Source: Trypanosoma brucei
Taxonomy: Eukaryota
NCBI GenBank assembly: GCA_000002445.1
Contig: CH464491.1
Span: 1,696,001-1,760,000 of the forward strand
Length of the DNA: 64,000 nt
Direction of reading: 5' to 3'
Positions within the stretch are counted from its first letter, which is position 1. Each line of letters starts with the position of its first letter. The notes beneath the pieces were generated by a model. The model saw only the letters and a list, made by a program, of their open reading frames with translations, searched no databases and was not told the origin of the DNA. Below are positions 17,380 through 62,790 of this stretch, piece after piece. A program made the translations under genes and the position numbers.

Positions 17380-20300
17380 CTACTGCAGAAACTTGAGGTT
17401 ATTAATATGTTGAATTGCCGAAAAGTGCTTAGTGGCGAGCTCTTTCCACATTTCCCTTGAGCGTTGTGATCCTAAACAATTGATATACTCCGATAGAAGA
17501 CCAACCACATCTGGGGGTAAAGAACCTGTCTGCAAGGCTTGGAATAGCTCCATAGCTGCCTTTGCTATGGCTGAACGGCGTTGGGCGTTTGCTACCTGCT
17601 GAATGGTCGTGCGCAACTTCTGCGCTAAGTCCCGATGTTCTGGGTTCAGCGACGAAATTTCAAACGACGACAAACCAAAATCATCCGCCGGTCGACCACC
17701 TGCGGCTGCAAACCGAGGTGGGGCGCCAGGGTTCGCGACCGGAGCGTACGCCACGCCGCCTACCCGTGGAGCTGTCACCACAGGGGGTGCGGTACCAACT
17801 GCAGTGGAAGGAATCCCGGGGGGAGGAGGAGCAACAGAACTGGGCGCTGTCATCGATGCTGCCTGAGGGGGTTGGTTTGTCACACTCTGGGGGTTCATGT
17901 TCCAGTTGGCATTTGAGCCGTCACTGGGCATACGTGGTGGTGGAAGCCCACCCGAGGTCATCGACGGTGGTGCCGACCCTGGTGGTGCCACCATCATATT
18001 CCCAACCCGCGGAGCTGACGGCTCCGGCGACGGGGAACTTTTACCCGTCCGATGCAAACTTCCTGTTGGAGGTGCACCAAAAGTCGATGTCGGGTTGGTG
18101 TCTAATCCTGATGGCGCCCTAGGAGGTAGAGGCATTCCACGTGGACCTGACGGTGGCTGCGCAGGAGTAGGAAATTGCTGAGGTGGTGCTAAAGGAGTTC
18201 CGATGACCTGCTGCGACGGCAGTGATGGAACGACCGTCGGTTGTGCTGGCGCGTGGAGCCCTTGTACAGATGTTACTGACGACCCACATGACGGCGGGGG
18301 TATCATTGGCATAGAACGTTGGGGATCCATATGGTTCGGCGGGCGTGGGGGGGCGGAAGTGGGAACCGGACCTTGCAATTCCTGACTCGGCAGATTTTGA
18401 GGAGGAGCACCACAGTAACCGCTCATCGTCGCAGTGGCAGGGGGGTGGTTTGTTACCACACCTCCTCCAACAGACCCCAAAGAAGACCAGGAAGAAATGG
18501 GATGAGGCATCAGTCTGGGTACCGGTGCAGCGGAGTTCGCCGTTACCGCCGGTCCCGGTTGTTGGGCGATGATCCCTGGTGCCGGCGCCTGTTGCTGCTG
18601 CCCACCGTACATATTGGGTTGCACAGCTGATGGAGGTTGTTGCTGCTGCCCACCGTACATATTGGGTTGCACAGCTGATGGAGGTTGTTGCTGCTGCTGT
18701 TGTTGTGTCGGTGGCGGCATCGTGGCTCCCATACGTTGCTGCTGGTACTGGGGTTGCACAACTGATGGAGGTTGTTGCTGCTGCCCACCGTACATATTGG
18801 GTTGCACAGCTGATGGAGGCTGTTGCTGCTGCTGTTGTTGTGTCGGTGGCGGCATCGTGGCTCCCATACGTTGCTGCTGGTACTGGGGTTGCACAGCTGA
18901 TGGAGGTTGTTGCTGCTGCTGTTGTTGCTGCCCGTTACCCTTGTTAGCCAAAAACTCCAAGCACGACTGACTTAGTGAATCCGAAAGAGGAGTCGCAACA
19001 AACGGGAAGGTGATCTGTCCACACGGAACTTCGAACCTCATCCGGTCTACCATAATTGCGGCGTTGCGATTGCCGACGTTAGCGGACCGCTGAAAAATTG
19101 GCATCGCCTTCGTAAGCAACCCCTTCCCCAACAACCCCAGCCCATATTCATACAAGTAATCCCCAAAGAACGTTGATGTAACCTTCCGCCCCGTCACTTC
19201 CTCAAGAAGAAGTACCTCCTGCACCAGCTTCTCTACAGGCATATTTTCCTCGTGCCACAGTTCCGCAACTGCATCCACATTTCCACTGCAAATAAAACAG
19301 GTCATAGCACTCTCCCTGTTACCCGCTTCCTTGAGGGCAAGTGCCAACTTGTCGCAAGCCTCCGAAAATCTTTCCCCTACAAATGATATTATAACGGAAA
19401 GAGCCTCCTTCCACAACGCGTTCCCACCGACCATCAACGAGCGAAAATCTCCTGCGGCGACTGCAGACGCATACACGATATGCCGTTTCCCCTGAGAATT
19501 CATTAAAATATGCCTGGTATATTCCTGCTGCACTCGCTGCATCAGCTTCCCTCCTTGCAAATAGGCAATAGCAAAGGCATCACCAAACTCGCATTCGTCC
19601 AAACATGCCTCAACCGCCTCATTGATGCGGCCTGCTGCTACATGTGAAGCAGCAATATCTTCTAATGATTTTTGTGTGCCCTGCATCGTCTCAAATGGGT
19701 CCTCCGTGTCCTCAGTTGGTGCGTCCTCGGCGAGGTAGGAAAGGATGGGGGTACGATCGTTTTTGCACGCTGCTGCAGCGGCCAAAAGTGGATATTGGTG
19801 CGCCTTTAGCCACTCTACACGCTCCACAGAGGCGGGTGGTAGTCGAGAAATCTCAGCGACAGGATCCCCACCGCTCATCCCTGACGGATCGGATGCGTTG
19901 TTTGTGACGATACGTGTAAGTCTGACAGCGTTTGCGGAGTGAGAAGACACCGACGCTACGAGCCCACTTATGCCAATAGAAGCCCCACATGGGCGCTGCA
20001 AAGACTTTTGTACCGATGCACCAGGGGCAGGGGCAGAAGACACATCCTCAGCCGTTGATACACAAAACAACGGCTCAAAGGATGACGTCGCCAGGACCAC
20101 CGGAAGTGCTCGAGACCACTTCATGTCAACCATATAGCCGTTTTGCTGTTGCAGTGCGCCATTCCGCTCTCCAGTCGAGGGGTCCCACCATAGTGTCTTC
20201 CCGTCCGCATCACATGACGCGAGAATCGCGTGGTCTGTCATATTCCACGCAAGTCCAGTTACAGCATTCTCGTGACCCAGCATCTCGCGAAGAGGCATCA

Positions 20301-21075
20301 TTGCTTTTTTTAAATCCCAAATTTGTATGGCAGGATGTTTTTCGTCGAGTCCGACAGCAATTTGAGTCGCCATAGATGGATGCCAAGCAATAATGTTTCC
20401 AGATGATCCCGATTTCCCACTCTTGGATACATGCAGCGACACTGCTAGGGTCTGTGTCTTCAGGTTCCACACATTGACAACGCCGTTAGCAACGGAAGTG
20501 GCTAAAATGTGAGGCCACTTCGGGTTCCACTGAAGGTGTGTAATGCCAGCCGGTTGAGCAGAGTCAGGCATAATAGGAACACGCTGCGGCTCTCGTGGGT
20601 TTTCCAACATCCATACATCCCATGCCCCGTCGTCGCCACCGATAGCAAGAAATGTGGGTTGGGACGGGTTGAATTGGCAACCACGGACGGCGCCGCGGTG
20701 CTCAGCAATAACAGAAAGTCGTGGTTCTTCCGTGTTACGGTCAGGATTGATTCCATAGTTTTTCATCATGATAGACGCATCGTACACGTACACGGCTCCA
20801 TCTTCACAAGAAACAGCAATGATGCCTCGTTCCCCGCCGTGTGGACTCCAGTCAACACGGAGAGCGTGTGCCGGAATCACCGTACGACCCAAAACGGGCA
20901 TCTCTGTCTCATCCGTCTGCGTGACATCAACCAACCGTATCTCGAGAAAGGCCTCACCAGAAAAGTTGTCATCAATTGCTCCGGCAACGGACGCCGCGGC
21001 GAGAAACGTTGGTGTTCCCAGAACCTCCGGTGCCCACGCAAAAACGCAGGTCAGGGGTGTGGCCTTTAAGCGCAT
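17380..21075 (-). CDS. SEC31: SEC31-like COPII outer-coat protein, 1231 aa: N-terminal WD40 beta-propeller, central P/Q-rich repeat region, C-terminal alpha-helical region.
   Basis: The N-terminal roughly 330 aa contain WD40 signatures (for example VNVWNLK and IQIWDLK). The long proline/glutamine-rich linker with near-perfect internal repeats and the conserved C-terminal helical region are typical of Sec31. Real ATG at 21075. Confidence 0.7.
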   Translation of the reverse strand: MRLKATPLTCVFAWAPEVLGTPTFLAAASVAGAIDDNFSGEAFLEIRLVDVTQTDETEMPVLGRTVIPAHALRVDWSPHGGERGIIAVSCEDGAVYVYDASIMMKNYGINPDRNTEEPRLSVIAEHRGAVRGCQFNPSQPTFLAIGGDDGAWDVWMLENPREPQRVPIMPDSAQPAGITHLQWNPKWPHILATSVANGVVNVWNLKTQTLAVSLHVSKSGKSGSSGNIIAWHPSMATQIAVGLDEKHPAIQIWDLKKAMMPLREMLGHENAVTGLAWNMTDHAILASCDADGKTLWWDPSTGERNGALQQQNGYMVDMKWSRALPVVLATSSFEPLFCVSTAEDVSSAPAPGASVQKSLQRPCGASIGISGLVASVSSHSANAVRLTRIVTNNASDPSGMSGGDPVAEISRLPPASVERVEWLKAHQYPLLAAAAACKNDRTPILSYLAEDAPTEDTEDPFETMQGTQKSLEDIAASHVAAGRINEAVEACLDECEFGDAFAIAYLQGGKLMQRVQQEYTRHILMNSQGKRHIVYASAVAAGDFRSLMVGGNALWKEALSVIISFVGERFSEACDKLALALKEAGNRESAMTCFICSGNVDAVAELWHEENMPVEKLVQEVLLLEEVTGRKVTSTFFGDYLYEYGLGLLGKGLLTKAMPIFQRSANVGNRNAAIMVDRMRFEVPCGQITFPFVATPLSDSLSQSCLEFLANKGNGQQQQQQQQPPSAVQPQYQQQRMGATMPPPTQQQQQQQPPSAVQPNMYGGQQQQPPSVVQPQYQQQRMGATMPPPTQQQQQQQPPSAVQPNMYGGQQQQPPSAVQPNMYGGQQQQAPAPGIIAQQPGPAVTANSAAPVPRLMPHPISSWSSLGSVGGGVVTNHPPATATMSGYCGAPPQNLPSQELQGPVPTSAPPRPPNHMDPQRSMPMIPPPSCGSSVTSVQGLHAPAQPTVVPSLPSQQVIGTPLAPPQQFPTPAQPPSGPRGMPLPPRAPSGLDTNPTSTFGAPPTGSLHRTGKSSPSPEPSAPRVGNMMVAPPGSAPPSMTSGGLPPPRMPSDGSNANWNMNPQSVTNQPPQAASMTAPSSVAPPPPGIPSTAVGTAPPVVTAPRVGGVAYAPVANPGAPPRFAAAGGRPADDFGLSSFEISSLNPEHRDLAQKLRTTIQQVANAQRRSAIAKAAMELFQALQTGSLPPDVVGLLSEYINCLGSQRSREMWKELATKHFSAIQHINNLKFLQ
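18590..18940. repeat. In-frame tandem DNA repeats inside the SEC31 coding sequence. Sub-units of about 42 bp and about 95 bp encode QQQQQQPPSAVQPNMYGG / QQRMGATMPPPTQQ peptide repeats.
   Basis: The 42-mer ctgcccaccgtacatattgggttgcacagctgatggaggttg appears at about 18600, 18641 and 18782. The longer unit tgttgtgtcggtggcggcatcgtggctcccatacgttgctgctggtactggggttgcaca appears at about 18700 and 18833. Confidence 0.85.
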
Positions 21076-30740: not shown

Positions 30741-33719
30741 TACTGGACACGCAGGCTAACGCTCTTCTAAGCTGGTGGGCGTGCCAAACACACCCGATAA
30801 TAATAGTAATAATAATAGTGATGAACTTCGCGCCCCACCACAAGAACACGAAGACTGTTCCGCAAGACACAGAATGGCCGGTGGTGTAAACTCGAAAATC
30901 TATGGACAACCGCGTGTGGTTGAGCTCCGCAGTATGCGGTGATGTACTATCCGGCCCACTCACTCCTCCCAACCTCCTAATGTGTTACACAACCCTCGCG
31001 TCAGAAGCGTGTAGTCGAATCAGCGCTCGGGTCAAAAGGAGTTGATATTACTTCAGTGTGTGTGAGTACACTAAACCTATATACTCAACTCACCTAATTA
31101 TGAATGAACAAGTGCCAAACAAGAAGAAGAGAGGAGGGAAAATGGGTGGCATAAAGCAAATGAGCCCCGACTAGGCTACACGACGAGTGATATTGGTGAC
31201 TGGGAACGCATATTGAACAAAACGTTCACTCTGTTGTGAACACAAAAAATCAAACCCGTTGGTTGAGACGATAACTTGACACACACACACACATGTTACT
31301 TACCAACGCCGTTTTACAAGGCACTATACCGCACATCTTTGAAGGCACACGAATAGTTCCGAGTTTTGACACAAACCATACCAACGAAAGGGATTCAAAA
31401 CATTTAGAGATGGCAAACTATTGTCAAATAGTATTTGTTCAACTGCAGTCACACCATCCCTTGGATACAACGACGGGTTGCGACTCATGGAAGGAATTTC
31501 TCTCGACTGCGGCGCATCGTCACAGCAACGACATATTTCGTATACCTTTTATTCTGCTACCTGATACAAGGGAAATAAGAGGGAAAGAAAAGTGAAGAAA
31601 TCATAAAACGCGATGGAGGTGCACAAAATGTGGCAACAACAACTCATGTGACGTGCACGCTCGTCCACTATAGTTACCGGCAGCGTGTAGACATATTATA
31701 TACCACCTTCATTCATTGTATCTCCCAGCAGCTGTTAAAACTAGAGAGAGCAACAAAAACGTTTTAAATTTACCACAATCACGTTTCCTCTTTTTAATTT
31801 TTTTTATTTTCATTTTTTTTTTGATTTCTTCTCCCCCTCTTCTTTCACTCCTTTCCCGCTGTTCACCTCCATCGCTTCAGAAAAGTAAGTCCATTTTGAT
31901 AAAAGCGGCAGATGTGAGAAGATGTAGTGGAGGGGAGCAGAGGGAAAAAAAATGAAACGGCGGGCAATGAAAGGGGGGGGAAAGGAAAGAACAAGAATAA
32001 GAACAAAAAAAGAGAGGAAATGAAATGAAATGAAATTATTATGAAACGAAGGGATGCAGTAAAGAAGAAAGAGGTGACACACAGCAACTCAAATAAGCAA
32101 CCGAATTGAACTCAGCCGTCACCACCGGTACCGCTTCTGCTAGTCTTAATATATATAACTCCCTCTCTGTTCTTCTCTAACGCTACATTTTACCTTCTCC
32201 CTAATAACTAGCGGCCTTTGAACTAAATCCGTGCATCTGCCTTCATTCTCCACTTCACCTGCGGGTCCCATCATTGTTACATATCATAATGGCGCCAAAC
32301 CTAAAAACAAAGCGACATTTTATTCTTTTTTTTTTTTAGCCTCTTCTTTTCCCTTTCACCACCATCCTCATCTTCATTTTTCCTTTTTCGTTTCCTGCAA
32401 CAGACACATATAAGTGCCAACACAACAACCAGCAGATGAGCGGAAATACAGGGGAAAGATTGGTATGGGTGTGCAAGCACGGTCTTATTGTTATTTAACT
32501 TTCACTTATAATATTCTCCAAGGAGTATCGATGCGCAAAGCTCATAGCTCCATTACAACAATATACCGCATGTCCCACTCACTATTTACACCCAAATAAA
32601 TAAGTAGCCACACATATTTTGTTTTCTTCATTATCACTCTTTCTTCCGTCACGAAGCCATATCAATCTCTCTTTTCTCTCTTTTCATTTCTGGGACCTTT
32701 CATAACACTCAAGGAAGAGATGGTGGAGCCAACGAGAAAAGTATTTAAAAAAAACAAAAAAAAGGATGATCAAAATGCTATGGAAATGTCATGCGGTTCA
32801 CAACACCCCCCCCCCCATCATCCTGCACCAGCGCAAGCACGCGACAAGCGTACAAAACAATTCCTTTTTTAAAAAAAAAAGGAAAGACGGCTGTTTCTAT
32901 TAGTATACGCTCAAATATACATATTCCCTGCACCAGCGCTAAATAAATGTCGTCTTAGGGGAAAAGGAAGTGGTTCGAGGGAGAGAAGAGAAAAGCAAAC
33001 GCATCCCTTCCGTTACATGTTCAACTGATGCGAAAGAGAAAAATATCTTCCTCCAGCGCGATGGGCACCTCTTATTTCGTCTATATTTGTTCCTGCTTAC
33101 CCCTCGTTAGCTCCTCCTCCTCCTCCTTACCGCAACTCTCTCACACACACCAAAGGGGGAAAAAACACGAGAAGAAGAAAAAAAAAGAGGTCGGCAGGTC
33201 AACACTCTCCTTTCCTCTCCGCACACACACACACACACGCGCCACTGTTGTGTCACGGGGAAATCGAGAGCGTAAACCAAGTCACTGTAGAGACGTTTAT
33301 TCCAAATAAGTCACATTCACCTCCCACTTCTCAGTGCTTCATCCTTTTTTTTGTTTGTTTTAGCCTGTATTACCTTTCCTTCCTCTCCTGGAAACCTCCT
33401 ACCACAAGCACATCCCCCGCCTCCTCTTAACAATCAATGTACTTTCATTTAGCAATCTTTCTTTTTCTCTTGTTCCTTCTTTTCCTCACATTTTTCTTTC
33501 ATATTTCTTACTTTCCCCTCCCTCCATCCCTCTCCTCCCACCTCCGGATTGCTCTCATTCTTCAACCCGATGGCATTGGCAACGCTTCCATTTACCTTCC
33601 ATTTCATCTAAACACTCCTCTCTACCAAACACACAAATAATGCGACAGCGTTCACTAGTTTTGACGTTCAAACATCACCTATATTCCGCTTTCTGCCGCT
33701 TCATCTTCCTTACTTCCCC

Positions 33720-35165
33720 TCACGCAACCTTCCGCTTGATAAAGTTGTAGCCCAGATCTTCTCCTTCCTCACGTAAGATATCATAATACTGGTTAATCAT
33801 TGTAACGGAAAGCAAAACACCCGTGCCGCTACCAATAGCACCAAGGAAGTCAGCAAAAAGTGTAAGCGCACCAACACATAGGCCACCAAAGCTAGCGGCA
33901 ACGGGAATGTACTTCTCAAGTAAACGTGCCATATCCTCCTCACTCTCGCGCGCCTGCGCCAGCCACCGTCCCTCTGAAACGAGGCGCTTAGCCACATCAC
34001 GCGGTCCCGTGTGGCTGATGGCCACCCACAGTTTAGAGAAGGTGGCACATGAGAAGAGAATGAAGACAATATACAGCACAGCGTGGACGGGGTCGTTGAT
34101 CATGTCGTAAAAAGTAGAAGGAGCTGTAAGATAGTACGCAAGTCCGCCAACAGGGTACATTTGCCCGCTCTGGCTATAAGCCCGTGACTCCCAACGACCG
34201 AGAAGGTTGATGAGGAAGTTGAACTGACCGAAGCGGCGCGAAAGGATCTGCGAAAAGAAGTTGATGTTGGACACCACACTGGTCTGCAGAATGATGGGCA
34301 TATTACTTGTATAGAAGAGTTTGATGATGTACGGCTGGCGGTCGGCAGCAGCGTTTCGGGACTTCGTCATAAGAGGGACGCGGAAACCTTGGAGGAACAC
34401 CACCACAGCGAAGAGTAAAACAGTCGCAAACACGTTGGTCAGGTTTGGCAACTGAGGGCGGTAAAACGCTTCCTTGAGAGCGCGCACCTTGTCTGTGCGA
34501 GTGACCAATAAGTGAAAGAATGCAATGATAGCACCTTCAAATTCCGAACCGCGACCTGTGTTGATAGTGGAAGGGGAGAAGCACTTCCAAATAATGGTGT
34601 CACAGATGTTGGTAGCAATGAATAAAGACGTCCCTGCGCCAAGTCCCCAGCCATTCTGCAGCAACTCGTCAAGAAGAATGCAAACCATCGTGGCAAATGT
34701 CAGCTGAAGAACAATTAGTCCACACATGAAGACACCAATCTCCCGTACGTCACCGTACATGCCAGACGAAACATATGCAGTGGCCTCCACTATAGTGATG
34801 AAGAGGGCCACAATCTTCTGCACACCCTCATACACTGCACGTTCCCGCTTGTTGTTAATGTCGTAACTTATGATCCTCACGCCAACGAGTAATTCCATGA
34901 CCAATGAGGCGGTAACAATAGGTGAGATACCGAGCTCCATGAGTGTTCCCTTATTACTGGCCAGGACGACACGCATCCAATAAAATGGGTCACTTGCTTG
35001 GCCGGGACGGGCTCCAAACACGGGCACTTGGCAACAAACCAGGAATATGAACAATGCCACAAAAGTCCACATGATGCGCTCCCTAATGGGGACAACACGT
35101 AACGGAGTGGCCACCTCTGGCAGGAAGGCCAATATGGGACTCATCTTCATGAGGATGTCGGTCAT
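33720..35165 (-). CDS. SEC61: Sec61 alpha subunit of the ER protein translocon, 481 aa.
   Basis: Full-length match to Sec61alpha/SecY (…IMWTFVALFIFLVCCQVPVFGA…DPFYWMRVVLASNKGTLMELGISPIVTASLVMELL…) with 10 transmembrane helices. Confidence 0.92.
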   Translation of the reverse strand: MTDILMKMSPILAFLPEVATPLRVVPIRERIMWTFVALFIFLVCCQVPVFGARPGQASDPFYWMRVVLASNKGTLMELGISPIVTASLVMELLVGVRIISYDINNKRERAVYEGVQKIVALFITIVEATAYVSSGMYGDVREIGVFMCGLIVLQLTFATMVCILLDELLQNGWGLGAGTSLFIATNICDTIIWKCFSPSTINTGRGSEFEGAIIAFFHLLVTRTDKVRALKEAFYRPQLPNLTNVFATVLLFAVVVFLQGFRVPLMTKSRNAAADRQPYIIKLFYTSNMPIILQTSVVSNINFFSQILSRRFGQFNFLINLLGRWESRAYSQSGQMYPVGGLAYYLTAPSTFYDMINDPVHAVLYIVFILFSCATFSKLWVAISHTGPRDVAKRLVSEGRWLAQARESEEDMARLLEKYIPVAASFGGLCVGALTLFADFLGAIGSGTGVLLSVTMINQYYDILREEGEDLGYNFIKRKVA

Positions 35166-37475: not shown

Positions 37476-39212
37476 TCAACAGCACCTTACTTCTTTTTTC
37501 CCTTGAGGAGGGCGCGCTTGCCGAGTATCCTCACGGGCAAACTGTACACTGACGAATTTTCGTAGCACCGGTTGCTGGCGCAGCCACCGCAGGCACTGAA
37601 GGGCGTCCACGGGCCGATCGAAGCGTACAAAAGCGCTCCACCGCGAAAATCCCACGTACGAACGGAAGCCGGCGAACCGCTCCGAATAAAAGTCTTGGCT
37701 CAATATCATTGACATCAGAGTTTCGGCGTTGTCACCATCCGGTACACGAGAAGCACTCGTGGAAACAGTGGTCGCAGTCGTTGAGGCCGTTGCGACTTCT
37801 TCATCCGGTGATGTGGCTGTGGAGCCGACTTGGTTGTTTGGTGACTCAGGTGAACTGGGTTCAGGTGGGTACGCCGGTTGAGGTGACGCGCGGTGACGAT
37901 GGTGGAACTGCGACCACCATTCATACAGAAGCTCCAGAGGATGCGGCTCCCTCCTCTCATCACACTGCCGTGCGTATGCAGACAACCTCCCTCCTCTCCC
38001 AGTCAGTGAGGGTGAGGGTGGGCCCAACGAGGTGGTGGGGGACAAACAATGCGGTGGTCCAGAAGATGTGCCACAAGGCTGCGAGTCGTTCCCAGATGAG
38101 GACCCACCCCGGGCACCCGTAACCCTGACGAACAGTGTGCTGCTGGGCAGCAACTCATCTTTAATCAAGGTCGGTGTAGCAACAAGCCCAGAAGAGCTGC
38201 CTGGCATGAGTTTCTCATCCTGAAGAGTCGCGCGGACGTCATATGGTGGGGTGCCCCTCTCCCAGTCACCTCGGCTCGGAAGGGGAACCTCATGCACGCG
38301 ATGTGAAGGAATTTGTGAAACCCCACCTCGTGCAGCTTCCGCGGCACTAAACAAGCACTCGAGGTTTCCACCAGCACCGCCACAATGAGTGCTGGGGACA
38401 CCATAACACTGTGAGAGATGGTGATGCGTGTAAACGGGTGCTCGCGGTACTGTGGAATGGTTCGATTTGCCGGTGGGAGGACCGGCACCACGTGAACCCG
38501 GTGGTGGAGGTCCTAACTGTGGTTGCCACCCTACAGTCCCTGTTGGTACGAGGTGAAGGGCAGCAGCGGGATCAGTGTTGCCGCTCGTGCTGTGGGGCGC
38601 CACCAAATAATTCGGAGGGTGAACTGACGGCGGCGGGGAAAGGTACTTTGGCCGGCACGCGGGGCTGCTCAGGGACCATTCCGCAATAAGAATCACGCTG
38701 TTAAGCAATAACTCAGTGGATCGAACGGGATCGGCCTCACAACAATTATACTCCTCATATGGAACGGGGTAGCGGAATCGAGACTGTGTTGGCGCCCACG
38801 TGGATGAGCTAACCTTTGAGCAGTCATACGCAATTTGGGCTGTTACAGCCACCTTTTGAAACCACCTCAACGCACGCAAAGCAAAGTCACCAGTCTCGTA
38901 TTCAGCGAAACCGACATCCCGACCCCCACTACGTTTCACACGCAGCTCAATAAGCCCCTCCCCCGGTACATATGGCAGTAGACGCAACCCGTTGTCAATA
39001 GTCAGTGGTAAATTTGTGATAAATATTGTACGCCTGAGAGGAGGTCGGTGCTCCCGCGATGGGGTTGGTGGCATGTGTCTTGAATACTCCTGACAGTGGC
39101 CCGGACACGGAGGCCCATGTGGCAACGGAGGCCCCTCGGGTGCTGCCATTCCAACCTGTTGGTGGGAGGGCAACTGGCCAGCCCCATAGTAGTGGTACAA
39201 CCTCGGACGCAT
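37476..39212 (-). CDS. Proline-rich RNA-binding protein of 578 aa with two RRM-like domains, one N-terminal and one C-terminal.
   Basis: N-terminal RNP-like segment RTIFITNLPLTIDNGLRLLPYVPGEGLIELRVKRSGGRDVGFAEYETGDFALRALRWFQ. C-terminal segment RFAGFRSYVGFSRWSAFVRFDRPVDALQCLRWL. The central region is P/G/S-rich. Real ATG at 39212. Confidence 0.55.
   Translation of the reverse strand: MRPRLYHYYGAGQLPSHQQVGMAAPEGPPLPHGPPCPGHCQEYSRHMPPTPSREHRPPLRRTIFITNLPLTIDNGLRLLPYVPGEGLIELRVKRSGGRDVGFAEYETGDFALRALRWFQKVAVTAQIAYDCSKVSSSTWAPTQSRFRYPVPYEEYNCCEADPVRSTELLLNSVILIAEWSLSSPACRPKYLSPPPSVHPPNYLVAPHSTSGNTDPAAALHLVPTGTVGWQPQLGPPPPGSRGAGPPTGKSNHSTVPRAPVYTHHHLSQCYGVPSTHCGGAGGNLECLFSAAEAARGGVSQIPSHRVHEVPLPSRGDWERGTPPYDVRATLQDEKLMPGSSSGLVATPTLIKDELLPSSTLFVRVTGARGGSSSGNDSQPCGTSSGPPHCLSPTTSLGPPSPSLTGRGGRLSAYARQCDERREPHPLELLYEWWSQFHHRHRASPQPAYPPEPSSPESPNNQVGSTATSPDEEVATASTTATTVSTSASRVPDGDNAETLMSMILSQDFYSERFAGFRSYVGFSRWSAFVRFDRPVDALQCLRWLRQQPVLRKFVSVQFAREDTRQARPPQGKKEVRCC

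Positions 39213-39480: not shown

Positions 39481-39521
<41 letters not shown>
39481..39521. repeat. (TG)n microsatellite, about 20 units.
   Basis: Direct reading: gtgtgtgtgtgtgtgtgtgtgtgtgtgtgtgtgtgtgtgtg. Confidence 0.9.
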
Positions 39522-40293: not shown

Positions 40294-41103
40294 CTAAAGT
40301 GCAGAAACCACCGCCCTAGGGTTCTTCGAAGCAGCCGCCTCCACCTTGTCGGCCTCACTCGACAAGCCAAGCTCTCGTAACTCCTGCGCTACAGCTAGCG
40401 CAACTGACTTGAAACTGTGCCCAGCAGATATTTTCCCACCTTCAACTGTATGGTAAACGCGGCTTACACCACCAACGACTCCCGCGAAAGCCAGTTCAAT
40501 TTGTTCTGTTGCTGCCACATCATTCAACAGCACCACTCCGAGTGATTCGGGGTTCACGATCAACTGATTTGCCACGGAGGCCGTTCCAACCACCTCAGTG
40601 GTTAATCCCGCCGACTCGATTGTCTCCGTTGAAATCTTTTTAAATAACTCGTTGATGCAATTGTGCTTACTTGCCTGCTTCACGACCAGCACGATGCGTT
40701 TCACTCCCTTCGCCTTTGCCTTCCCAACAGCAACCTCTGCGCTCTTCTTGAAGGCCTCCGTGGCAGACCTCACCTCCTCTTTGGTGTCAATCCCAGCAGA
40801 AGCGTAAACGTCAAGAGCGTCCCGTAACTGCACGGAGTCGGGTGCAGCACGGGGAAGGACTGCGCGCACAACAACAGTTGACACACCAGAAAAAAGAGGG
40901 TCCTGAGCCGACTTGGGGGCCTCCGTCACGGCAGTGTGCACACCGATTGGAGTTTCTGGCCCAACAACGACGGCATGGCGACCAGCTTCCTTCGCTGTTT
41001 TGGTCTGCACACGACCGCCCGCAACCTTACTGACGATAGCACTGGCTGACTGCAGGACGGCAGCAGTGGCGCCCGCTGATATAAACGTTAGTTGCTTCGA
41101 CAT
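40294..41103 (-). CDS. Hypothetical protein of 269 aa with an isocitrate / isopropylmalate dehydrogenase-like fold, truncated and catalytically degenerate.
   Basis: The segments VKQASKHNCINELFKKI, VGTASVANQLIVNPESLGVVLLNDVAATEQIELAFAGVVGG and NPRAVV.. line up with IDH/IMDH motifs (VHKANIMK..LF..I; VDNASMQ..P..FDVLV.PNLYGDILSD.AA.L.GGLG; NPTAMI). The NLYGD active-site block is replaced and the N-terminal third of the enzyme is absent. The ORF-track start is TTG; the real ATG is at 41103 (MSKQLTF). Confidence 0.5.
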   Translation of the reverse strand: MSKQLTFISAGATAAVLQSASAIVSKVAGGRVQTKTAKEAGRHAVVVGPETPIGVHTAVTEAPKSAQDPLFSGVSTVVVRAVLPRAAPDSVQLRDALDVYASAGIDTKEEVRSATEAFKKSAEVAVGKAKAKGVKRIVLVVKQASKHNCINELFKKISTETIESAGLTTEVVGTASVANQLIVNPESLGVVLLNDVAATEQIELAFAGVVGGVSRVYHTVEGGKISAGHSFKSVALAVAQELRELGLSSEADKVEAAASKNPRAVVSAL

Positions 41104-42212
41104 TCCGGGCAAAATGAAACTTCCCTCTCTCTTTTGTGCCTCGGTTTGTGAGCGAGCTCGTAAATTACCAACTAAAGAGGGGGGAAATGGAGAAAATTAA
41201 CAGATAAAAGAAAAAAATAGCACGTTCATCTTTCGGATAGTTAGTTCAACACCGGGCAAGCGCGGTGCAAAAGCAGGGAGACAAATACATAGGTGGAGAA
41301 GTCAAGTCAGCACACTGCAACACGGTTTTTTTATTTTTTTTGTTTTGCCACTGGCGAAACGTCACCCTACACTTATCAGGCGATTTACCAACTCCCGCGT
41401 CACACCCCACGCCTCAGTGGTGAAAAGAGTGGAGGGAGTTCTTTGAATCCCACCGCACTCACCCACCGACTGCGCTGCTTTGGCAGCTTAAGAAAAAAGG
41501 AAAAGAAATGCATAGCGGCTGCATCGCGGACCCGCGGGATGCACGCACTGTGGGAATTGGCCTCGAAAGAAGCGAAAAAAAAGTGCAAAAGGGGTCCCTT
41601 GGGCGCGGAACATCTACGACATCAGGACGCACTACAAGGCAATAAGGAGCGACTGTTTATATGCTATGAACTCCTCGTTCCTCCAATGTCCCTTCTCAAG
41701 ACCCCAACTCACCTGCGATAACACGCCCCTACATGTGCAAAATTATTGGTACCCAGCTGGAGTTTACTCCGCTCCCTAGTTAAGCAATCCCGTCACTGTT
41801 CTCCCAAATGTGGTAGACGCAGAGAAAAATCAAGCAATGAGGGGGGGGGATTAGCTGCAATATTTATTGGGAATGTTCCGAGGCGAACCGCCTTTCTTTG
41901 GCATAGAGCGGCCAACTAGGGTCGGTAGACCAAGGCAAACCACTCAATCAACAGATGCATGTAGGGGCACGTGAAGAAAAATTGACTTCGAGCCCCATAA
42001 ACTTTTTCTTAACATAAGCAACTGCAATCGTCGAACTAAATCAGCCCCACGAATGGAAATAAAGTGGATAAGGGTATTCCTCCAATACACGACGCTGTTC
42101 GTGCAAACTTGCTGCGGGGAGGGAAGTTTCTGTTACATATGCTGGGAAACCTCCCAAGCGCTTCGGCAAGAGTTCCAAGGTGGTTCAGCGATACCCCCAC
42201 GACAAATACCTG

Positions 42213-44615
42213 CTATGCGAGGTTAGTTGGAGCGCGTCCCCCCAAAAACTCGTATGTCTCCCAAAGATGAATGAGATCTAATACCGTGGGACACATCAGT
42301 AGTGTGTGTGGCGGAAACGGCAGCCTCGTGTAATGTGATAACCTACGTGTAAACTCCACTCCGGTCTGCAACAGAACACACCCGGAATGCACCTCGTAAT
42401 ACTTCACCGTAGGCGAAACCTGGTGCACACCAACTGCTCCAGGAGGTTGCCCATTCGCAACGACGATATACTCAGGTAAGCCACAAGACTGCTCTTGTGT
42501 TGCCATCACATCCTCCCACAAACAGTTCACGGAGGGAACACCACAACTAGTGCACGTGCCTGTCACAGGATGCGACACCTCGCACAAGCGCTGGTAACAT
42601 TCATTGATTTCCCTTCCAGTTTCTGGCCTTTTCATAACCAGTCCAAAGTCGACAAAGGTGCAGGAAAGGGTTTCCGTATATGCGAGTCGGGGTTCACACT
42701 CCCAGGATATAACTTTCAATATATCGTTGATTACGGCACACTTATTGAGGGTAGACTCCATAACGTGTTTGGCTCTACCCCTGCGAGGCGTCGAAAGGAT
42801 ATTCAGGGCGACAACGTCTGCAGGCTCAGATAGTACTACAACATCCCGTTGCTCCCACTCAACAAGCTTTCCAATACCCGGTTCGGTTGCGGAAAAGTCA
42901 AGTAACACATCGCCGTTTTGTAGCTGCTGGAGAGAATGTGTCAAGTCGTGGGAAGAACAAGTCACTGCCCGAGCAACTTCATCCAAAAGAGAGCCTATAG
43001 ACTCACTACTCCATGGCTTCCCGTCAACGGGAGAGTACACAGTTAAATGCATAGATGATGCATCTAGTTCCACACCGTTGTCACTCCAAAGCTGCAGAAG
43101 TTGGAGATGTTTAGACTGATTGTAGAAAAGGCTGTTCTCGGGAGTAAATATGGGAAGAAACTCCTTGTGCACCTTGATACCAGCGGCGCATGCGTAGCGC
43201 AGCACAAGAATGTCGAGGCGTTCCAGATCTACGGGATTGCCACAAACGATAGCGCAGCGGGTGCTTATAACTCGCGTTATCTCAACCTTGGAGAGGGGAA
43301 TAACACAAGCTGTCGGGCCTTCTGTGCGATCATAACGTGCCCGGGAAAAAATCTGGACTTGGTTTATCCTCTCAACCAAAAGCTGCAGGCATGGTATCGT
43401 TATGTTAACTAGAAGTAGAGCGAAGCTACAATTAGAGCACTTCCGTACATGGGTTTCAAGGCATCTCTCATCGTCAATGTAAACTGAACCGACAAAAAAC
43501 GCCGCATGGTACATGTTTGAGACGTTTCGCAGCAGGTCCTCCTCTGTTGGAGACATGGCAATGGCTAGTGCGGCTAGCACGTCCTTCCCACACGTGAGCA
43601 GCCCACCTCGCAGGCGAAGGATATCGAAGAGATTACGATACCCATGCTGCTTAGCCGTAACGTAGAAACAGGATGCGGCGTACAGCACACTAAACGGCCA
43701 GGCGACCAACGAGTAGTCAAAGAAGTACTCCCCAGGGGCGTCTGAAGGGTTGCGCAGGAACTCCACGATGTTTACAACATCCGGAAAAAGTGGCGGGCAC
43801 TGATCCACTACATGCTCCACAAACGGCTCCAGCAACTGGCGGTGCCGCTTGAAGAGGGCAGCAAAAGATTCGAAGCGGTCACGCTCCATCATGCTAAACA
43901 GACCAAAAACACTACACGCGGGTTGCCGCGGCAGTTTTGGGATATACTTGGATGCCCCACCCCACACTTCTGGCAGGGTCGCGTCACCTGCATCTTTTCC
44001 AACATCAGGAGAGCCGTAGTGCTGCAGCAAGTCACGCAAACTCGATACGCGCACGCGCCCACACCCGCAAGCTGCGTTGCCAACAGGTAAGAGTTCGCTA
44101 TAAGAGCTACTTCGCCCCATTCTCGTACCCCTGTTGCTGCAATGACTCGCAGGCGCGGCCACAGACCATGTTGCCGCAGCGGGGCTTGCACTGATATCAC
44201 TCCCGGGTTTACCGAAATCCTGATCGCCAGCCCGCCTCGGGTTGCGTAACGAGACGGCCCGCTTCCGTACTGGCGGAAGCACATTTTCTACATCAAAGGA
44301 CTCACAAGCATTAAGCGCACAACTCCTCATAGTTGTGGTGCTTCGAGTTGCCTCTGTGCTCGGTTGCGACTTGGGCCCCACCGAGCGAGACTGGGATACA
44401 TCTCGTGAAACAACTTCCCCATGATAAGGAACACCAGCTTCCCAACTTCGCCGCGACAGAAAGGGGGGGATCCCTTCAGTTTGCGCAGGCACAACCTCAT
44501 GCAAATGCGGCGATTGAGAGTCGCCAGGGTACGTTTTGTTGCGATTAACAATGTTTTCACTAGAATCCACAGCGGAATAGCGCCGCAATGGGCATCCTTC
44601 AGCTCCATCCGCCAT
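42213..44615 (-). CDS. Hypothetical protein of about 800 aa with no recognisable domain; Cys-rich in places.
   Basis: Long uninterrupted ORF on the strand of its neighbours, with non-repetitive composition. The ORF-track start at 44717 is TTG; the first ATG at 44615 gives MADGAEGCPLRR.... Confidence 0.6.
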   Translation of the reverse strand: MADGAEGCPLRRYSAVDSSENIVNRNKTYPGDSQSPHLHEVVPAQTEGIPPFLSRRSWEAGVPYHGEVVSRDVSQSRSVGPKSQPSTEATRSTTTMRSCALNACESFDVENVLPPVRKRAVSLRNPRRAGDQDFGKPGSDISASPAAATWSVAAPASHCSNRGTRMGRSSSYSELLPVGNAACGCGRVRVSSLRDLLQHYGSPDVGKDAGDATLPEVWGGASKYIPKLPRQPACSVFGLFSMMERDRFESFAALFKRHRQLLEPFVEHVVDQCPPLFPDVVNIVEFLRNPSDAPGEYFFDYSLVAWPFSVLYAASCFYVTAKQHGYRNLFDILRLRGGLLTCGKDVLAALAIAMSPTEEDLLRNVSNMYHAAFFVGSVYIDDERCLETHVRKCSNCSFALLLVNITIPCLQLLVERINQVQIFSRARYDRTEGPTACVIPLSKVEITRVISTRCAIVCGNPVDLERLDILVLRYACAAGIKVHKEFLPIFTPENSLFYNQSKHLQLLQLWSDNGVELDASSMHLTVYSPVDGKPWSSESIGSLLDEVARAVTCSSHDLTHSLQQLQNGDVLLDFSATEPGIGKLVEWEQRDVVVLSEPADVVALNILSTPRRGRAKHVMESTLNKCAVINDILKVISWECEPRLAYTETLSCTFVDFGLVMKRPETGREINECYQRLCEVSHPVTGTCTSCGVPSVNCLWEDVMATQEQSCGLPEYIVVANGQPPGAVGVHQVSPTVKYYEVHSGCVLLQTGVEFTRRLSHYTRLPFPPHTLLMCPTVLDLIHLWETYEFLGGRAPTNLA

Positions 44616-45215
44616 AGGAGCTCCTTGCTGTGACCTGCACAGCCCCTGAAAGCAAAAAAAAGAGGGAGAAAAAGAAGAATTTACTAAACCCAGCGATTTC
44701 TCTACACCCCTTACCAATGACTGCTGATTAGTAGTTAAATTTCCTGTGTTAATCTTAATGCAATAAAATGGAACCCCACAACATCTGGCAAACGAATCGT
44801 TTCTTCGAGGCCTTCACCCTAAAAGGGAATTCCTCTGTTATCCGCAGCAGATACACACAAAGAGCTAATGCGACCAAAGCACAACGGTAAAGAAATCATC
44901 AATGGCCGCGTGCCGTTCCACTCCCCTCACCAGCAGCCCAGTCGCCTGTGAGCAGGCACATCGCCAACCAACAATAGTGGATAGGGATTATGAAGCCTCA
45001 AAATACTGGAAAAGTCACCGGTGCAGACGTATACCAAAAGCAACGGGACTCACAGCGGTCCTCATCACCAACCCCGGTCTTTCAGTATTCACGCACCAGC
45101 CGCACTCGCGTACGAACACTGTTCAGGGCAGGAAAAGTTGTCAAGGGCAGCAGACAACAGGAAGACAACTGCAAATAAGTGGCAACCGCGCAGTAGCGGA
45201 TTCGGTCCCACGGTC

Positions 45216-48086: not shown

Positions 48087-50828
48087 TTAAAGCTTGGCCG
48101 CGAATCCCTTACGCGCCTTCATCGCAGCCCTCCTATCCTTAATGGAGGCATGAGCAGCGGCAACAATCGCGACAGGCACACGGAATGGTGAGCAGGAGAC
48201 GTAGTCCAACCCCACCTTGTGGCAGAAACCAATGGTCGCAGGGTCGCCACCGTGCTCTCCACATATGCCCATCTTTAGCATTGGTTTCACTCTCCGACCC
48301 TTTGTCACGGCAATGCGCACCAGCTCACCAATGCCTTCTTGATCGATCGACTGGAAGGGATCCTGTGCGTATATCCCAAGGTTACCGTAGTGTCTTAAAA
48401 AGGGGCCGGCATCGTCACGGGAGAAGCCACATCCCATTTGAGTAAGATCGTTGGTGCCAAAGGAGAAGAAGTCCGCCTTTTGCGCGATTGAGTCGGCAGT
48501 TACTGCGGCGCGAGGAACCTCAATCATTGTGCCGACAGTGTAATGAACACGTTTTCCCGATTTTGTGATTACAGCTTCGGCCGTCTTTACCACCTCTTCC
48601 CTTATAAGCGAAAGTTCTTCCTTTTTCCCCACCAACGGAACCATGATTTCTGGGATAACACTGCTTCCTTCCTCACTTACCGCAATAGCCGCCTCGATGA
48701 TGGCCCTTACTTGCATATTGTAGATCTCAGGGTACGTGATACCCAGCCGGCATCCACGGTGGCCAAGCATAGGGTTCAACTCGTGCAACGCATTTACACG
48801 ATTTCGAACCTTCTCTGCAGGCATCCCAAGCTTCTGCGCAAGCTCAAATTGTGCAGCGGCGTCATGTGGCACAAACTCGTGCAGCGGCGGGTCGAGAAGC
48901 CGAATCGTCACGGGAAGTCCCCTCATCGCCCTCAATATGCCAACAAAGTCAGCACGCTGAATAGGTAACAGTTTGTCGAGGGCAGCCTTTCGGCCACTCG
49001 CCGAATCCGCCAGAATCATCTCACGGATGAAATTGATTCGGCTGCCCTCAAAAAACATGTGCTCCGTGCGGCACAACCCAACACCTTCAGCACCAAAACT
49101 GCGAGCCTTTGCAGCATCGGCGGGTGTGTCAGCGTTAGTGCGCACCCCAAGTCGTTTCATCTCCTGGCACCACTGAAGAATGGTCTGGAAGCTTCCCTTC
49201 AGATCTGGTGAACGAAGTTTCAGCTTGCCGGCGTATATCAGTCCTTTGGACCCGTCAATGGTGATGTAGTCGCCCTCCCGGAAGACACTGCCATTCAATT
49301 TAAATGACTTCCCCCTGATTACCATATCACCGCATCCGGAAACACAGCACTTACCCATTCCGCGAGCAACAACGGCTGCATGCGATGTCATCCCGCCACG
49401 TGCTGTAAGAATACCACATGCAGCATCCATGCCAGCAAGATCCTCTGGTGAGGTTTCAAGGCGTACCATGATAACTTTCTTCCCTCTACCACTCCACTCC
49501 TTTGCGGATTCTGCATCAAACACAACCTGGCCGACAGCGGCTCCGGGGCTCGCAGCAAGGCCCCTTCCGATGGGTTTGTTGGCCTTCTCAGCTCCAGGTT
49601 CAAGATTTGGGTGCATCAAATGGTCCACCTGATACGGGTCTATCCGCAAAACAGCTTCCTCCCTAGAGATAAGACCCTCATTGACCATATCGATGGCAAT
49701 ACGAACCGCTGCGTGAATCGTACGCTTGCCATTGCGACACTGAAGCAACCACAGTCGACCGTCCTGGACAGTGAACTCAAGATCTTGCATATCGCGGTAG
49801 TGATTCTCCAGTCTCTTACGAACATCACAGAGGAGTCTGTAGTTTTCGGGCATCGCCTCTTCCATGGATGGATAGCGCTTGCGACGCTCTTCTTCGCCGA
49901 CACCGTGAGCTTTGGCCCAGCGCAGCGAAAGCGAATGATTGATCTGTTGGGGGGTACGGATGCCCGCGACAACGTCTTCACCCTGCGCGTTAACAAGATA
50001 CTCTCCGAAGAAAAAGTTCTCGCCGGTGCTGGGACTGCGTGAGAAGGCAACGCCGGTGGCGGAGCGGTCGTTGATGTTACCAAACACCATTGCCTGGACA
50101 TTCACAGCCGTACCAAGAAGACCTGTGATGTTGTTCATGCGGCGGTAAATTGTGGCGCGGGGGTTACCCCAGCTACGAAACACAGCTTTGATGGCTGCGA
50201 ACAGCTGCATTACTGGGTCCTGGGGAAATGAGCACCCAGTCTTCAGCTCGAACAGCTCCAAGTACCCATCACAAAGCTCCTTTAGGTCCGAAGCGGTCAG
50301 GTCAGTATCAAATTTAGTACCACGTCTCTCCTTCATTCGGCTAAGTGCCTCCTCGAAGTCTTCACGCCCGACTTGCATCACAATGTCGGCGTACATAGTA
50401 ATAAAGCGACGGTATGAGTCATACACGAAGCGTTCGAGGCGAGGTGCGCGACGTACCCACGCGTCAACTGTCACCTTATTCAGACCGAGGTTCAACACAG
50501 TGTCCATCATACCAGGCATCGACGCTGCAGCCCCAGACCGCACTGAGAATAGTAGCGGGTTGGTAGGATCGCCAAACTTTGCCCCCATCTCCTTTTCCAC
50601 GCGGCTCACGTTCTCCCTCACCTGGTCCGCGACCTCTTGAGGAATAGTCTCCGTTTCTTGATACGTCTTGCAGGCTTCTGTGGTGATAGTAAATCCGGGA
50701 GGGACGGGGATGCCAAGGTTCACCATCTCTGCAAGGTTGGCTCCCTTCCCACCGAGGAGCTCCTTCATGTTCTTGTTACCGTCCGCCTTTCCACCACCGA
50801 AGTAGTAAACCCACTTTTTAGCCACCAT
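48087..50828 (-). CDS. PPDK: Pyruvate, phosphate dikinase (PPDK), 913 aa, with a C-terminal -AKL PTS1-type glycosomal targeting signal.
   Basis: Full-length PPDK with the PEP-utilising-enzyme phosphohistidine region GGMTSHAAVVARGMGKCCVSGC and a TIM-barrel PEP/pyruvate domain. The N-terminus MVAKKWVYYFGGGKADGNKNMKELLGGKGANLAEM and the C-terminal ...KGFAAKL fit the glycosomal trypanosomatid enzyme. Confidence 0.95.
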   Translation of the reverse strand: MVAKKWVYYFGGGKADGNKNMKELLGGKGANLAEMVNLGIPVPPGFTITTEACKTYQETETIPQEVADQVRENVSRVEKEMGAKFGDPTNPLLFSVRSGAAASMPGMMDTVLNLGLNKVTVDAWVRRAPRLERFVYDSYRRFITMYADIVMQVGREDFEEALSRMKERRGTKFDTDLTASDLKELCDGYLELFELKTGCSFPQDPVMQLFAAIKAVFRSWGNPRATIYRRMNNITGLLGTAVNVQAMVFGNINDRSATGVAFSRSPSTGENFFFGEYLVNAQGEDVVAGIRTPQQINHSLSLRWAKAHGVGEEERRKRYPSMEEAMPENYRLLCDVRKRLENHYRDMQDLEFTVQDGRLWLLQCRNGKRTIHAAVRIAIDMVNEGLISREEAVLRIDPYQVDHLMHPNLEPGAEKANKPIGRGLAASPGAAVGQVVFDAESAKEWSGRGKKVIMVRLETSPEDLAGMDAACGILTARGGMTSHAAVVARGMGKCCVSGCGDMVIRGKSFKLNGSVFREGDYITIDGSKGLIYAGKLKLRSPDLKGSFQTILQWCQEMKRLGVRTNADTPADAAKARSFGAEGVGLCRTEHMFFEGSRINFIREMILADSASGRKAALDKLLPIQRADFVGILRAMRGLPVTIRLLDPPLHEFVPHDAAAQFELAQKLGMPAEKVRNRVNALHELNPMLGHRGCRLGITYPEIYNMQVRAIIEAAIAVSEEGSSVIPEIMVPLVGKKEELSLIREEVVKTAEAVITKSGKRVHYTVGTMIEVPRAAVTADSIAQKADFFSFGTNDLTQMGCGFSRDDAGPFLRHYGNLGIYAQDPFQSIDQEGIGELVRIAVTKGRRVKPMLKMGICGEHGGDPATIGFCHKVGLDYVSCSPFRVPVAIVAAAHASIKDRRAAMKARKGFAAKL

Positions 50829-56149: not shown

Positions 56150-56152
<3 letters not shown>

Positions 56153-56192
<40 letters not shown>
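56153..56192. repeat. (CA)n microsatellite, about 20 units.
   Basis: Direct reading: cacacacacacacacacacacacacacacacacacacac. Confidence 0.9.
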
Positions 56193-61989: not shown

Positions 61990-62790
61990 TCAAAACTTTG
62001 CCAAGTTTTCAGCAATCTCCTTATCTAACAAGAACGAAACGTTCCCCTCACAACCCCGAAGGAAGCGAGCAACGGGAGCTTTATGGGCGGTGTCCGCCAG
62101 TATGCCATCAACAACCCATTTCTTCTCTGCACCCGTCGCAAGTACGATGACATTACGCGCTTGCATAATCGTTGCTGGCGACAGCGTGACACGCCACACC
62201 TTCGGCTTCATGGTTTCGCTGGGGAATCCTACGCTGACAACCACCTTTCCGTCTGTCTCCTTTTCAGCCTGGCTTCCTGGGAAAATGGAGGCCGTGTGGC
62301 CATCAGACCCCAAACCCAAGAGTACGACATCAAAGACGGGAACTTTCGCTCCCGCTTCTCCCACACTCTTCAGGGGAAGAAGCGAGGCAAGTTGCTTTCC
62401 GTACGCCTCAGCCACCCTCATGGCGTCAGCAGATGTCGCCTCTGCCGAAGGCGTGACGGCGCTGGTGTCGAAAGGAAAAACGAGGTCGTCGGGGATGTCG
62501 TGAAGAAGGACTTCCCTCGCCATGTTGTAGTTGGAATCGGTGGAGTCGGCGGGGACCATCCGCTCATCTCCCATAAAAAAACGCAGCGCGCGCTTCTCCC
62601 TAAGCAAATTAAGGTGCTCATCATGCAGCCGCGCGTAGGTCATCTTTGGCGTGGAACCACCCGCAAGGGCGATGGACAAAGGCCATTGTTGGCTCCCTGA
62701 AGTCTCTATGATTTCCACTATCTTTCGACACCCTGCAGCAGAGAGCTCCTGAGGCGTCGCGTGAACGCTGATGGTTGGCTTGAATGACAT
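61990..62790 (-). CDS. PGL: 6-phosphogluconolactonase (pentose-phosphate pathway), 266 aa, with a C-terminal -AKF PTS1-like tripeptide.
   Basis: Member of the glucosamine-6-P isomerase / 6PGL family with the signature VFDVVLLGLGSDGHTASIFPGS and the N-terminal LSIALAGGSTP. Real ATG at 62790. Confidence 0.9.
   Translation of the reverse strand: MSFKPTISVHATPQELSAAGCRKIVEIIETSGSQQWPLSIALAGGSTPKMTYARLHDEHLNLLREKRALRFFMGDERMVPADSTDSNYNMAREVLLHDIPDDLVFPFDTSAVTPSAEATSADAMRVAEAYGKQLASLLPLKSVGEAGAKVPVFDVVLLGLGSDGHTASIFPGSQAEKETDGKVVVSVGFPSETMKPKVWRVTLSPATIMQARNVIVLATGAEKKWVVDGILADTAHKAPVARFLRGCEGNVSFLLDKEIAENLAKF

Follow-up and report, generated by a model that had tools for sequence, protein, structure and literature searches.

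What does a short protein do that is encoded in an intact reading frame and recalls the isocitrate dehydrogenases (IDHs) in one of its motifs? This question is raised by a gene on the minus strand of a 64,000-nucleotide stretch of the Trypanosoma brucei genome (contig CH464491.1, positions 1,696,001 to 1,760,000; in the following, the window). A first-pass annotation, made by eye from the letters, had read the product as a truncated, catalytically degenerate protein of the isocitrate/isopropylmalate dehydrogenase fold. Our analysis supports this reading as essentially right but not new: by sequence identity, the gene is that of ATPTB3, which is known from earlier work as a structural subunit of the T. 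brucei mitochondrial ATP synthase. For T. brucei, ATPTB3, its position and function within the complex, and its RNA interference (RNAi) phenotype were already published in 2022, and the IDH-like fold of the Euglena orthologue was published in 2019. What is added here is scientifically little, namely a map of the retained and lost residues, bridge sequences that connect the protein to the Pfam family PF00180, and the observation that the public records still read 'hypothetical'.

Identity and place of the protein

The ATPTB3 coding sequence occupies 40294..41103 on the minus strand, with the start ATG at 41103-41101 and, after 269 codons, the TAG stop at 40296-40294. The open reading frame (ORF) is uninterrupted and its 269-residue product is identical to a database protein, which confirms the intact frame that the first-pass annotation had noted. 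In the program-made ORF list, the frame begins 9 nt (three codons) further upstream, with a TTG at 41112, but we favor the ATG at 41103 because its product is the one found in the databases. The protein is exactly XP_828699.1 / EAN79587.1 / UniProt Q385E4 of T. brucei brucei TREU927. When it was compared with the PDB sequences using phmmer, it matched chain 8ap6_G, 'ATPTB3' of the T. brucei mitochondrial F1Fo-ATP synthase dimer, with an E-value of 7.7e-159 and 267 of 269 residues identical over the full length; it is the same gene product as chain G/g of 8AP6/8AP8 (Gahura et al., 2022, PMC9553925). The two differences, A62V and S176A, are consistent with strain variation, with the window carrying the TREU927 allele. 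A 2025 paper on diplonemid mitochondria likewise lists ATPTB3 as XP_828699.1 (PMC12699882). The window is therefore nuclear DNA of strain TREU927. The XP_828699.1 record itself is labeled 'hypothetical protein, conserved' and has no Pfam domain, and as the public records thus give neither a name nor a domain, an annotation based on sequence alone misses ATPTB3.

According to the T. brucei structure paper, subunit b of this ATP synthase lacks its canonical long helix, and the OSCP-d-8 interaction is stabilized by the soluble subunits ATPTB3 and ATPTB4; after RNAi against ATPTB3, monomeric and dimeric ATP synthase decreased strongly or disappeared almost completely, and free F1 accumulated (PMC9553925). 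For Euglena, the structure paper describes ATPTB3 and ATPTB4 as an additional clamp on the contact that the OSCP extension makes with subunit d (Muhleip et al., 2019, PMC6930080). In the two papers, ATPTB3 is positioned at the peripheral stalk's tip, where it touches the extension of OSCP as well as subunits d and 8, alongside ATPTB4 (PMC9553925, PMC6930080), and a comparative paper has suggested that ATPTB3 and ATPTB4 take the position of subunit h (PMC10214729). The PDB cluster listing for 8AP6 contains the chains G and g, which fits one copy in each monomer of the dimer.

ATPTB3 is a soluble, Euglenozoa-specific subunit of the F1Fo-ATP synthase that descends, as a relic, from an enzyme of the nicotinamide adenine dinucleotide (NAD)-dependent isocitrate dehydrogenase type, i.e., from a beta-decarboxylating dehydrogenase. 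Published cryo-EM and RNAi work shows that it clamps OSCP, by the C-terminal extension of the latter, to the divergent subunits d and 8. This clamp compensates for the shortened subunit b and holds the F1 head against rotation. In this function, ATPTB3 probably acts as a rigid structural block and not as an enzyme. The first-pass idea of a maintained non-catalytic paralogue that serves as a scaffold subunit thus finds its counterpart in a subunit of the peripheral stalk, with the ATP synthase, and not an IDH, as the partner complex.

Relationship to the isocitrate and isopropylmalate dehydrogenases

It was in principle conceivable that the resemblance to IDHs is spurious, being either an artefact of alignment by eye or a generic alpha/beta sandwich without common ancestry, and several direct comparisons weigh in this direction and against an enzymatic origin. 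A word-indexed search found 17 orthologues of 266-271 residues with 45-99% identity to the window protein, every one of them trypanosomatid, unnamed and without Pfam domains, and Pfam scans of the window protein and these orthologues gave no PF00180 match at E<=10 in any of the 18 trypanosomatid sequences, but only noise, such as Pho86 and DUFs. A search of the PDB with the trypanosomatid profile (hmmsearch) gave two ATPTB3 chains only and no IDH chain. In hhalign, the trypanosomatid-only alignment reached a P value of 0.008 against an IDH alignment, which we count as not significant. The first-pass annotation had itself named the lack of a significant profile hit to this family as grounds for regarding its alignment as spurious, and a direct PF00180 match is indeed lacking. 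We nevertheless consider this lack overridden because structural, transitive, and profile-profile evidence all establish the relationship, and a spurious resemblance, which these results have in our view already refuted, retains practically no probability.

The first of these lines is the structure. The AlphaFold2 (AF2) model of the window protein, generated with the orthologue alignment, has a mean predicted local distance difference test score (pLDDT) of 91.6 and superposes on the solved chain 8ap8_g with a template modeling (TM) score of 0.99 and a root-mean-square deviation of 0.8 A over 268 residues; for the ATPTB3 chains of 8AP6/8AP8, the deviations are 0.7-0.8 A. Because the 268 modeled residues of the solved chain superpose one-to-one on the AF2 model, ATPTB3 is probably imported without a cleaved presequence, so that the mature subunit would retain its N-terminus. 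When the AF2 model was used in a Foldseek search, all matches after two ATPTB3 chains were beta-decarboxylating dehydrogenases, with E-values of 6e-12 to 4e-10 and a probability of 1.0. They comprised human IDH3 alpha/beta/gamma, yeast IDH, isopropylmalate dehydrogenase (IPMDH), and related beta-decarboxylating dehydrogenases, with IDH3 gamma and beta among the top ones. The two-domain alpha/beta fold that is typical of the PF00180 family is present in ATPTB3, and the structure prediction that had been proposed as a check therefore came out in favor of the first-pass reading. The Euglena paper already described ATPTB3 as IDH-like in 2019 and shows it superposed on the homoisocitrate dehydrogenase 4YB4 (PMC6930080).

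The second line is transitive and makes use of more distant family members. When 1.84 billion cluster representatives were searched in full with the trypanosomatid profile by HMMER, only 46 proteins reached E<=0.001. Their named sources were trypanosomatids, Diplonema japonicum (P0043), and the prokinetoplastid Papus ankaliazontas (P0036). In the PDB, the same profile matched Euglena gracilis ATPTB3. Judged from the matches with a source name, ATPTB3 is a small family restricted to Euglenozoa (kinetoplastids, diplonemids, and euglenids). One of the 46 matches, the 468-residue P0052, has an N-terminal extension with CCCH zinc fingers joined to an ATPTB3-like C-terminal part, an arrangement that could be a real fusion or an artefact of the gene model or assembly.

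The D. japonicum orthologue and an environmental relative (P0041) matched the trypanosomatid profile over their full length, with E-values of 7.7e-24 and 4.8e-31, respectively, and both also matched PF00180 above its curated cut-off of 27 bits, with 34.1 bits (P0043) and 32.5 bits (P0041). In phmmer searches, P0043 found T. brucei ATPTB3 (1.3e-16) and Euglena ATPTB3 (6e-17) as well as Xanthomonas NAD-IDH (9e-8), Thermus homoisocitrate dehydrogenase (HICDH; 4e-7), human IDH3 beta (5e-7) and IDH3 alpha (1e-5), and also yeast IDH2 and IDH1, and P0041 found T. brucei ATPTB3 (8e-24) and Xanthomonas IDH (4.4e-10). The diplonemid and environmental homologues thus bridge the family to PF00180, while the trypanosomatid sequences lie beyond the reach of HMMER. 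As the enzymes reached by the bridge sequences are all of the NAD-IDH or HICDH type, these matches suggest that ATPTB3 originated in the NAD-IDH/HICDH branch.

The third line is the profile-profile comparison. A cleaned ATPTB3 family alignment of 35 sequences was compared with a small LeuB/DmlA/Icd alignment by hhalign at default stringency, which gave a probability of 93.6%, a score of 56.9, and a P value of 2e-7 (residues 118-260 against LeuB 172-328). Reversed or column-shuffled IDH alignments served as controls and gave scores of 10-17 with P values of 0.2-0.9. An earlier comparison of a 37-sequence family alignment with the single LeuB sequence had been weak, with 30.9%, and the result became convincing only with the cleaned family alignment and the small LeuB/DmlA/Icd alignment. 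A homologue search with E. coli LeuB for a diverse IDH-family profile returned only sequences of >=86% identity and added nothing. The C-terminal part of ATPTB3 alone aligned with the IDH alignment at a P value of 5.9e-8, and the N-terminal third alone was in register with the N-terminus of the enzymes at a marginal P value of 0.01.

With structure, transitive sequence matches, and profile-profile comparison, the relationship of ATPTB3 to IDH/IPMDH is solidly established by three independent lines. The case also demonstrates that a motif match made by eye can hold true although HMMER profile searches miss it.

Residues kept and lost

To which extent has the enzyme been dismantled? The residue map is based on the hhalign alignment and is given in the numbering of E. 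coli IDH (EcIDH). The confidently alignable core that ATPTB3 has in common with isocitrate/isopropylmalate dehydrogenases comprises residues 118-260 (40324..40752, minus strand), and residue assignments N-terminal of residue 118 are of low confidence because the N-terminal third aligns only at P 0.01. The N-terminal part of the fold is nevertheless present: residues 1-47 (40963..41103, minus strand) form the beta-alpha-beta-beta unit of the IDH large domain, with a strand at 3-9, a helix at 14-28, and strands at 32-37 and 44-47. ATPTB3 is thus not N-terminally truncated, as had been assumed, but is shortened by internal deletions. The first-pass alignment to the C-terminal two-thirds of the enzymes was correct in that the sequence signal lies in the C-terminal ~60%, and it fell short in leaving out the N-terminal part of the fold.

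K142 (aag codon, 40678..40680, minus strand) stands where the enzymes have their catalytic Lys (EcIDH K230, LeuB 'DKAN'), and this column contains K in 33/35 family members and R in the other 2/35. The sequence LLNDVAATEQIELAFAGVVGG (residues 192-212, 40468..40530, minus strand) is the relic of the metal-binding 'NLxGDILSD...GG' block, and the profile-profile alignment with LeuB shows that the first-pass annotation had placed this block correctly. Within it, LeuB D251 (EcIDH D307) corresponds to E200, at a position that is acidic (Glu or Asp) in 25 of the 35 family members, and LeuB D255 (EcIDH D311) corresponds to L204. The third metal-binding residue, EcIDH D283, is replaced by A175 in the confident part of the alignment, and two of the three metal-binding Asp are thus lost, with a Glu at the third position. 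Also within the confident core, the coenzyme-binding NAD(P) loop (LeuB 282-294, 'GSAPDIAGK') is deleted, with a loss of 13 residues, and a C-terminal segment of 22 residues (LeuB 329-350) is deleted as well. In the less reliable part before the core, the dimerization arm is shortened by deletion of LeuB 147-153 and 166-170, and in the AF2 model there are no strands between the helices 93-102 and 108-132, where the arm lies.

In the low-confidence N-terminal region, the equivalent of EcIDH R119 falls into a 26-residue deletion (LeuB 81-106), EcIDH R129 aligns with A66, and the EcIDH R153 position is kept as R94, with an Arg in 22/35 members. The substrate-binding Arg triad (EcIDH R119, R129, R153) is thus not intact, with only the R153 position retained. 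EcIDH Y160 aligns in this same region with Y100 in T. brucei, and most orthologues have Phe, Leu, or Met there. The claim that the catalytic Asp and Tyr residues are lost was therefore justified for the Asp residues and is less certain for the Tyr of T. brucei, and the claimed catalytic degeneration is borne out by D283->A175, D311->L204, D307->E200, and the deleted coenzyme loop, with the kept catalytic Lys position as an exception. As far as can be judged from the alignment, ATPTB3 is a relic of an enzyme in which the two-domain fold was kept and two of the three metal-binding Asp, at least two of the three substrate-binding Arg, the coenzyme loop, and the dimerization arm were lost.

These losses can be compared with the named relatives, i.e., the PF00180 enzymes human IDH3 alpha/beta/gamma, yeast IDH1/IDH2, Xanthomonas IDH 6LTF, and Thermus HICDH 4YB4. 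NAD-IDH/HICDH and ATPTB3 have in common the two-domain fold, the Lys from the catalytic dyad, and the 'GG' that follows the metal block, but ATPTB3 is ~70-90 residues shorter, lacks the coenzyme loop and dimerization arm, and is below Pfam detection. Whereas NAD-IDH/HICDH are dimers or octamers of like subunits, ATPTB3 is embedded as a single copy in a rotary ATPase. Euglena gracilis ATPTB3 (6TDU chain B; Muhleip et al., 2019, PMC6930080) is larger, with 338 residues in comparison to 269, is ~17% identical, and has lost less of the ancestor's C-terminal segment, with its NP..LL and GGK motifs, than the T. brucei protein.

Because two of the three metal-binding Asp and the coenzyme loop are lost, ATPTB3 appears to be non-catalytic. 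One could still argue that it is an active beta-decarboxylating dehydrogenase of unusually small size, found with the ATP synthase only through co-purification, as it belongs to the fold, retains the Lys, and, in T. brucei, has a Tyr in the aligned position. The exchanges of EcIDH D283 to Ala, D311 to Leu, and R129 to Ala, the deletion of R119 and of the NAD loop, and the absence of Tyr from most orthologues are, however, difficult to reconcile with activity, and the AF2 model lacks the arm hairpin on which the obligate dimer depends. Moreover, ATPTB3 is built into the T. brucei structures as an integral subunit, and so is its orthologue into those of Euglena. The probability of a still active enzyme is therefore negligible in our assessment.

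We regard it as almost certain that ATPTB3 is a rigid, non-catalytic brace of the stator, a view that takes the location and the RNAi phenotype from the literature and the inactivity from the residue and loop losses. Some aspects weigh against this view: the loss of activity is deduced from these losses, the residue assignments N-terminal of residue 118 depend on a low-confidence alignment, and with R94, K142, and E200 conserved, some residual ligand binding is conceivable.

The latter aspect leads to a variant in which ATPTB3 would be a scaffold and, in addition, a ligand sensor. By analogy with the non-catalytic IDH3 beta/gamma subunits, the cleft would still bind citrate/isocitrate, adenosine diphosphate (ADP), or NAD, and would thereby couple the peripheral stalk to the metabolic state. 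IDH3 beta/gamma and yeast IDH1, which are regulatory subunits also according to their PDB titles, are precedents for non-catalytic paralogues in the IDH fold. The conservation of K142, R94, and the acidic E200 position at the frequencies given above, together with the regulatory IDH3 gamma and beta chains among the top Foldseek matches, would fit such a sensor, but the coenzyme loop and the R119 segment are deleted and two of three metal Asp are lost, and the conserved polar residues could equally contact OSCP, subunit d, subunit 8, or ATPTB4. Furthermore, the available portions of PMC6930080 and PMC9553925 report no ligand in ATPTB3. We thus consider a ligand sensor quite unlikely, and it is highly improbable that the relic cleft, with Arg94, Lys142, and Glu200, binds a tricarboxylic acid (TCA) cycle metabolite or a nucleotide and makes the trypanosome peripheral stalk metabolite-responsive. 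If true, such a stalk could be relevant when trypanosomes switch between synthesizing ATP (insect stages) and hydrolyzing it (bloodstream stages).

Genomic surroundings and wider meaning

The GC content around ATPTB3 is 0.516, the same as that of its neighbors, and 19 of the 21 ORFs of >=200 residues in the window are on the minus strand, in line with the normal composition and the placement in a transcription unit that the first-pass annotation had described. Because of this strand distribution and the matching GC content, the surroundings of ATPTB3 are consistent with one polycistronic unit. The two plus-strand ORFs of this size, 8828-9541 and 62083-62700, are without support, and the latter is antisense to the 6-phosphogluconolactonase (6PGL) gene. 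Plus-strand antisense ORFs of 63-95 residues beneath ATPTB3 were dismissed as chance. Spliced-leader acceptor sites of trypanosomatids usually consist of a pyrimidine-rich tract followed by an AG. A polypyrimidine tract with a subsequent AG (41173-41172) is found at 41172..41219 on the minus strand, 69 nt upstream of the ATPTB3 ATG, and by the general rules of trypanosomatid trans-splicing it is a candidate for such a site.

Among the neighbors in the transcription unit are ribosomal protein L28e, a DHHC palmitoyltransferase, an eRF3-like GTPase, an ABCA-type transporter, Sec61 alpha, and a Sec31-like WD40 protein, as well as pyruvate phosphate dikinase (48087-50828), a cytochrome P450 (25930-27438), which we take to be CYP51-like, and 6PGL (61990-62790), the last three on the minus strand and in keeping with the T. 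brucei origin. The flanking genes at 37476-39212 (578 residues) and 42213-44717 (834 residues), both on the minus strand, had no Pfam match at E<=0.001. By eye, the 578-residue protein has stretches near both ends that resemble RNA recognition motifs, e.g., 'IFITNLP...VGFAEYETGDFALRAL'. The Sec61 alpha ORF (33720-35165, minus strand) is directly followed downstream by a region at 33000-33750 with a GC skew of -0.35 to -0.58 on the plus strand (a G-rich minus strand), which is probably due to the composition of the 3' untranslated region. A 418-residue ORF at 12496-13752 on the minus strand scores 32.1 bits with the Oxa1/YidC family (60KD_IMP), just under the Pfam cut-off of 35, and may encode a divergent mitochondrial insertase.

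Among the repeats, two perfect intergenic microsatellites, (GT)19.5 at 39482-39520, which is ~800 nt downstream of the ATPTB3 stop codon, and (AC)21 at 56151-56192, were detected. At 18590-18919, a 135-bp unit is repeated 2.3 times with 98% identity and a 48-bp sub-period within the 1231-residue WD40/Sec16-Sec31-like ORF at 17380-21075; presumably, this is a coding low-complexity repeat.

Other respiratory complexes contain metabolic enzyme folds that have become fixed as accessory structural subunits, such as NDUFA9 and NDUFA10 in complex I and the gamma-carbonic anhydrases in complex I of plants. These subunits have other folds, belong to other complexes, and are not homologous to ATPTB3, but by analogy ATPTB3 would follow the same evolutionary pattern. 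The residue map gives an account of this change, in which the Lys230 position and the acidic character of D307 were kept and the coenzyme loop, the R119 segment, and the arm were deleted as an enzyme became the brace of a rotary motor.
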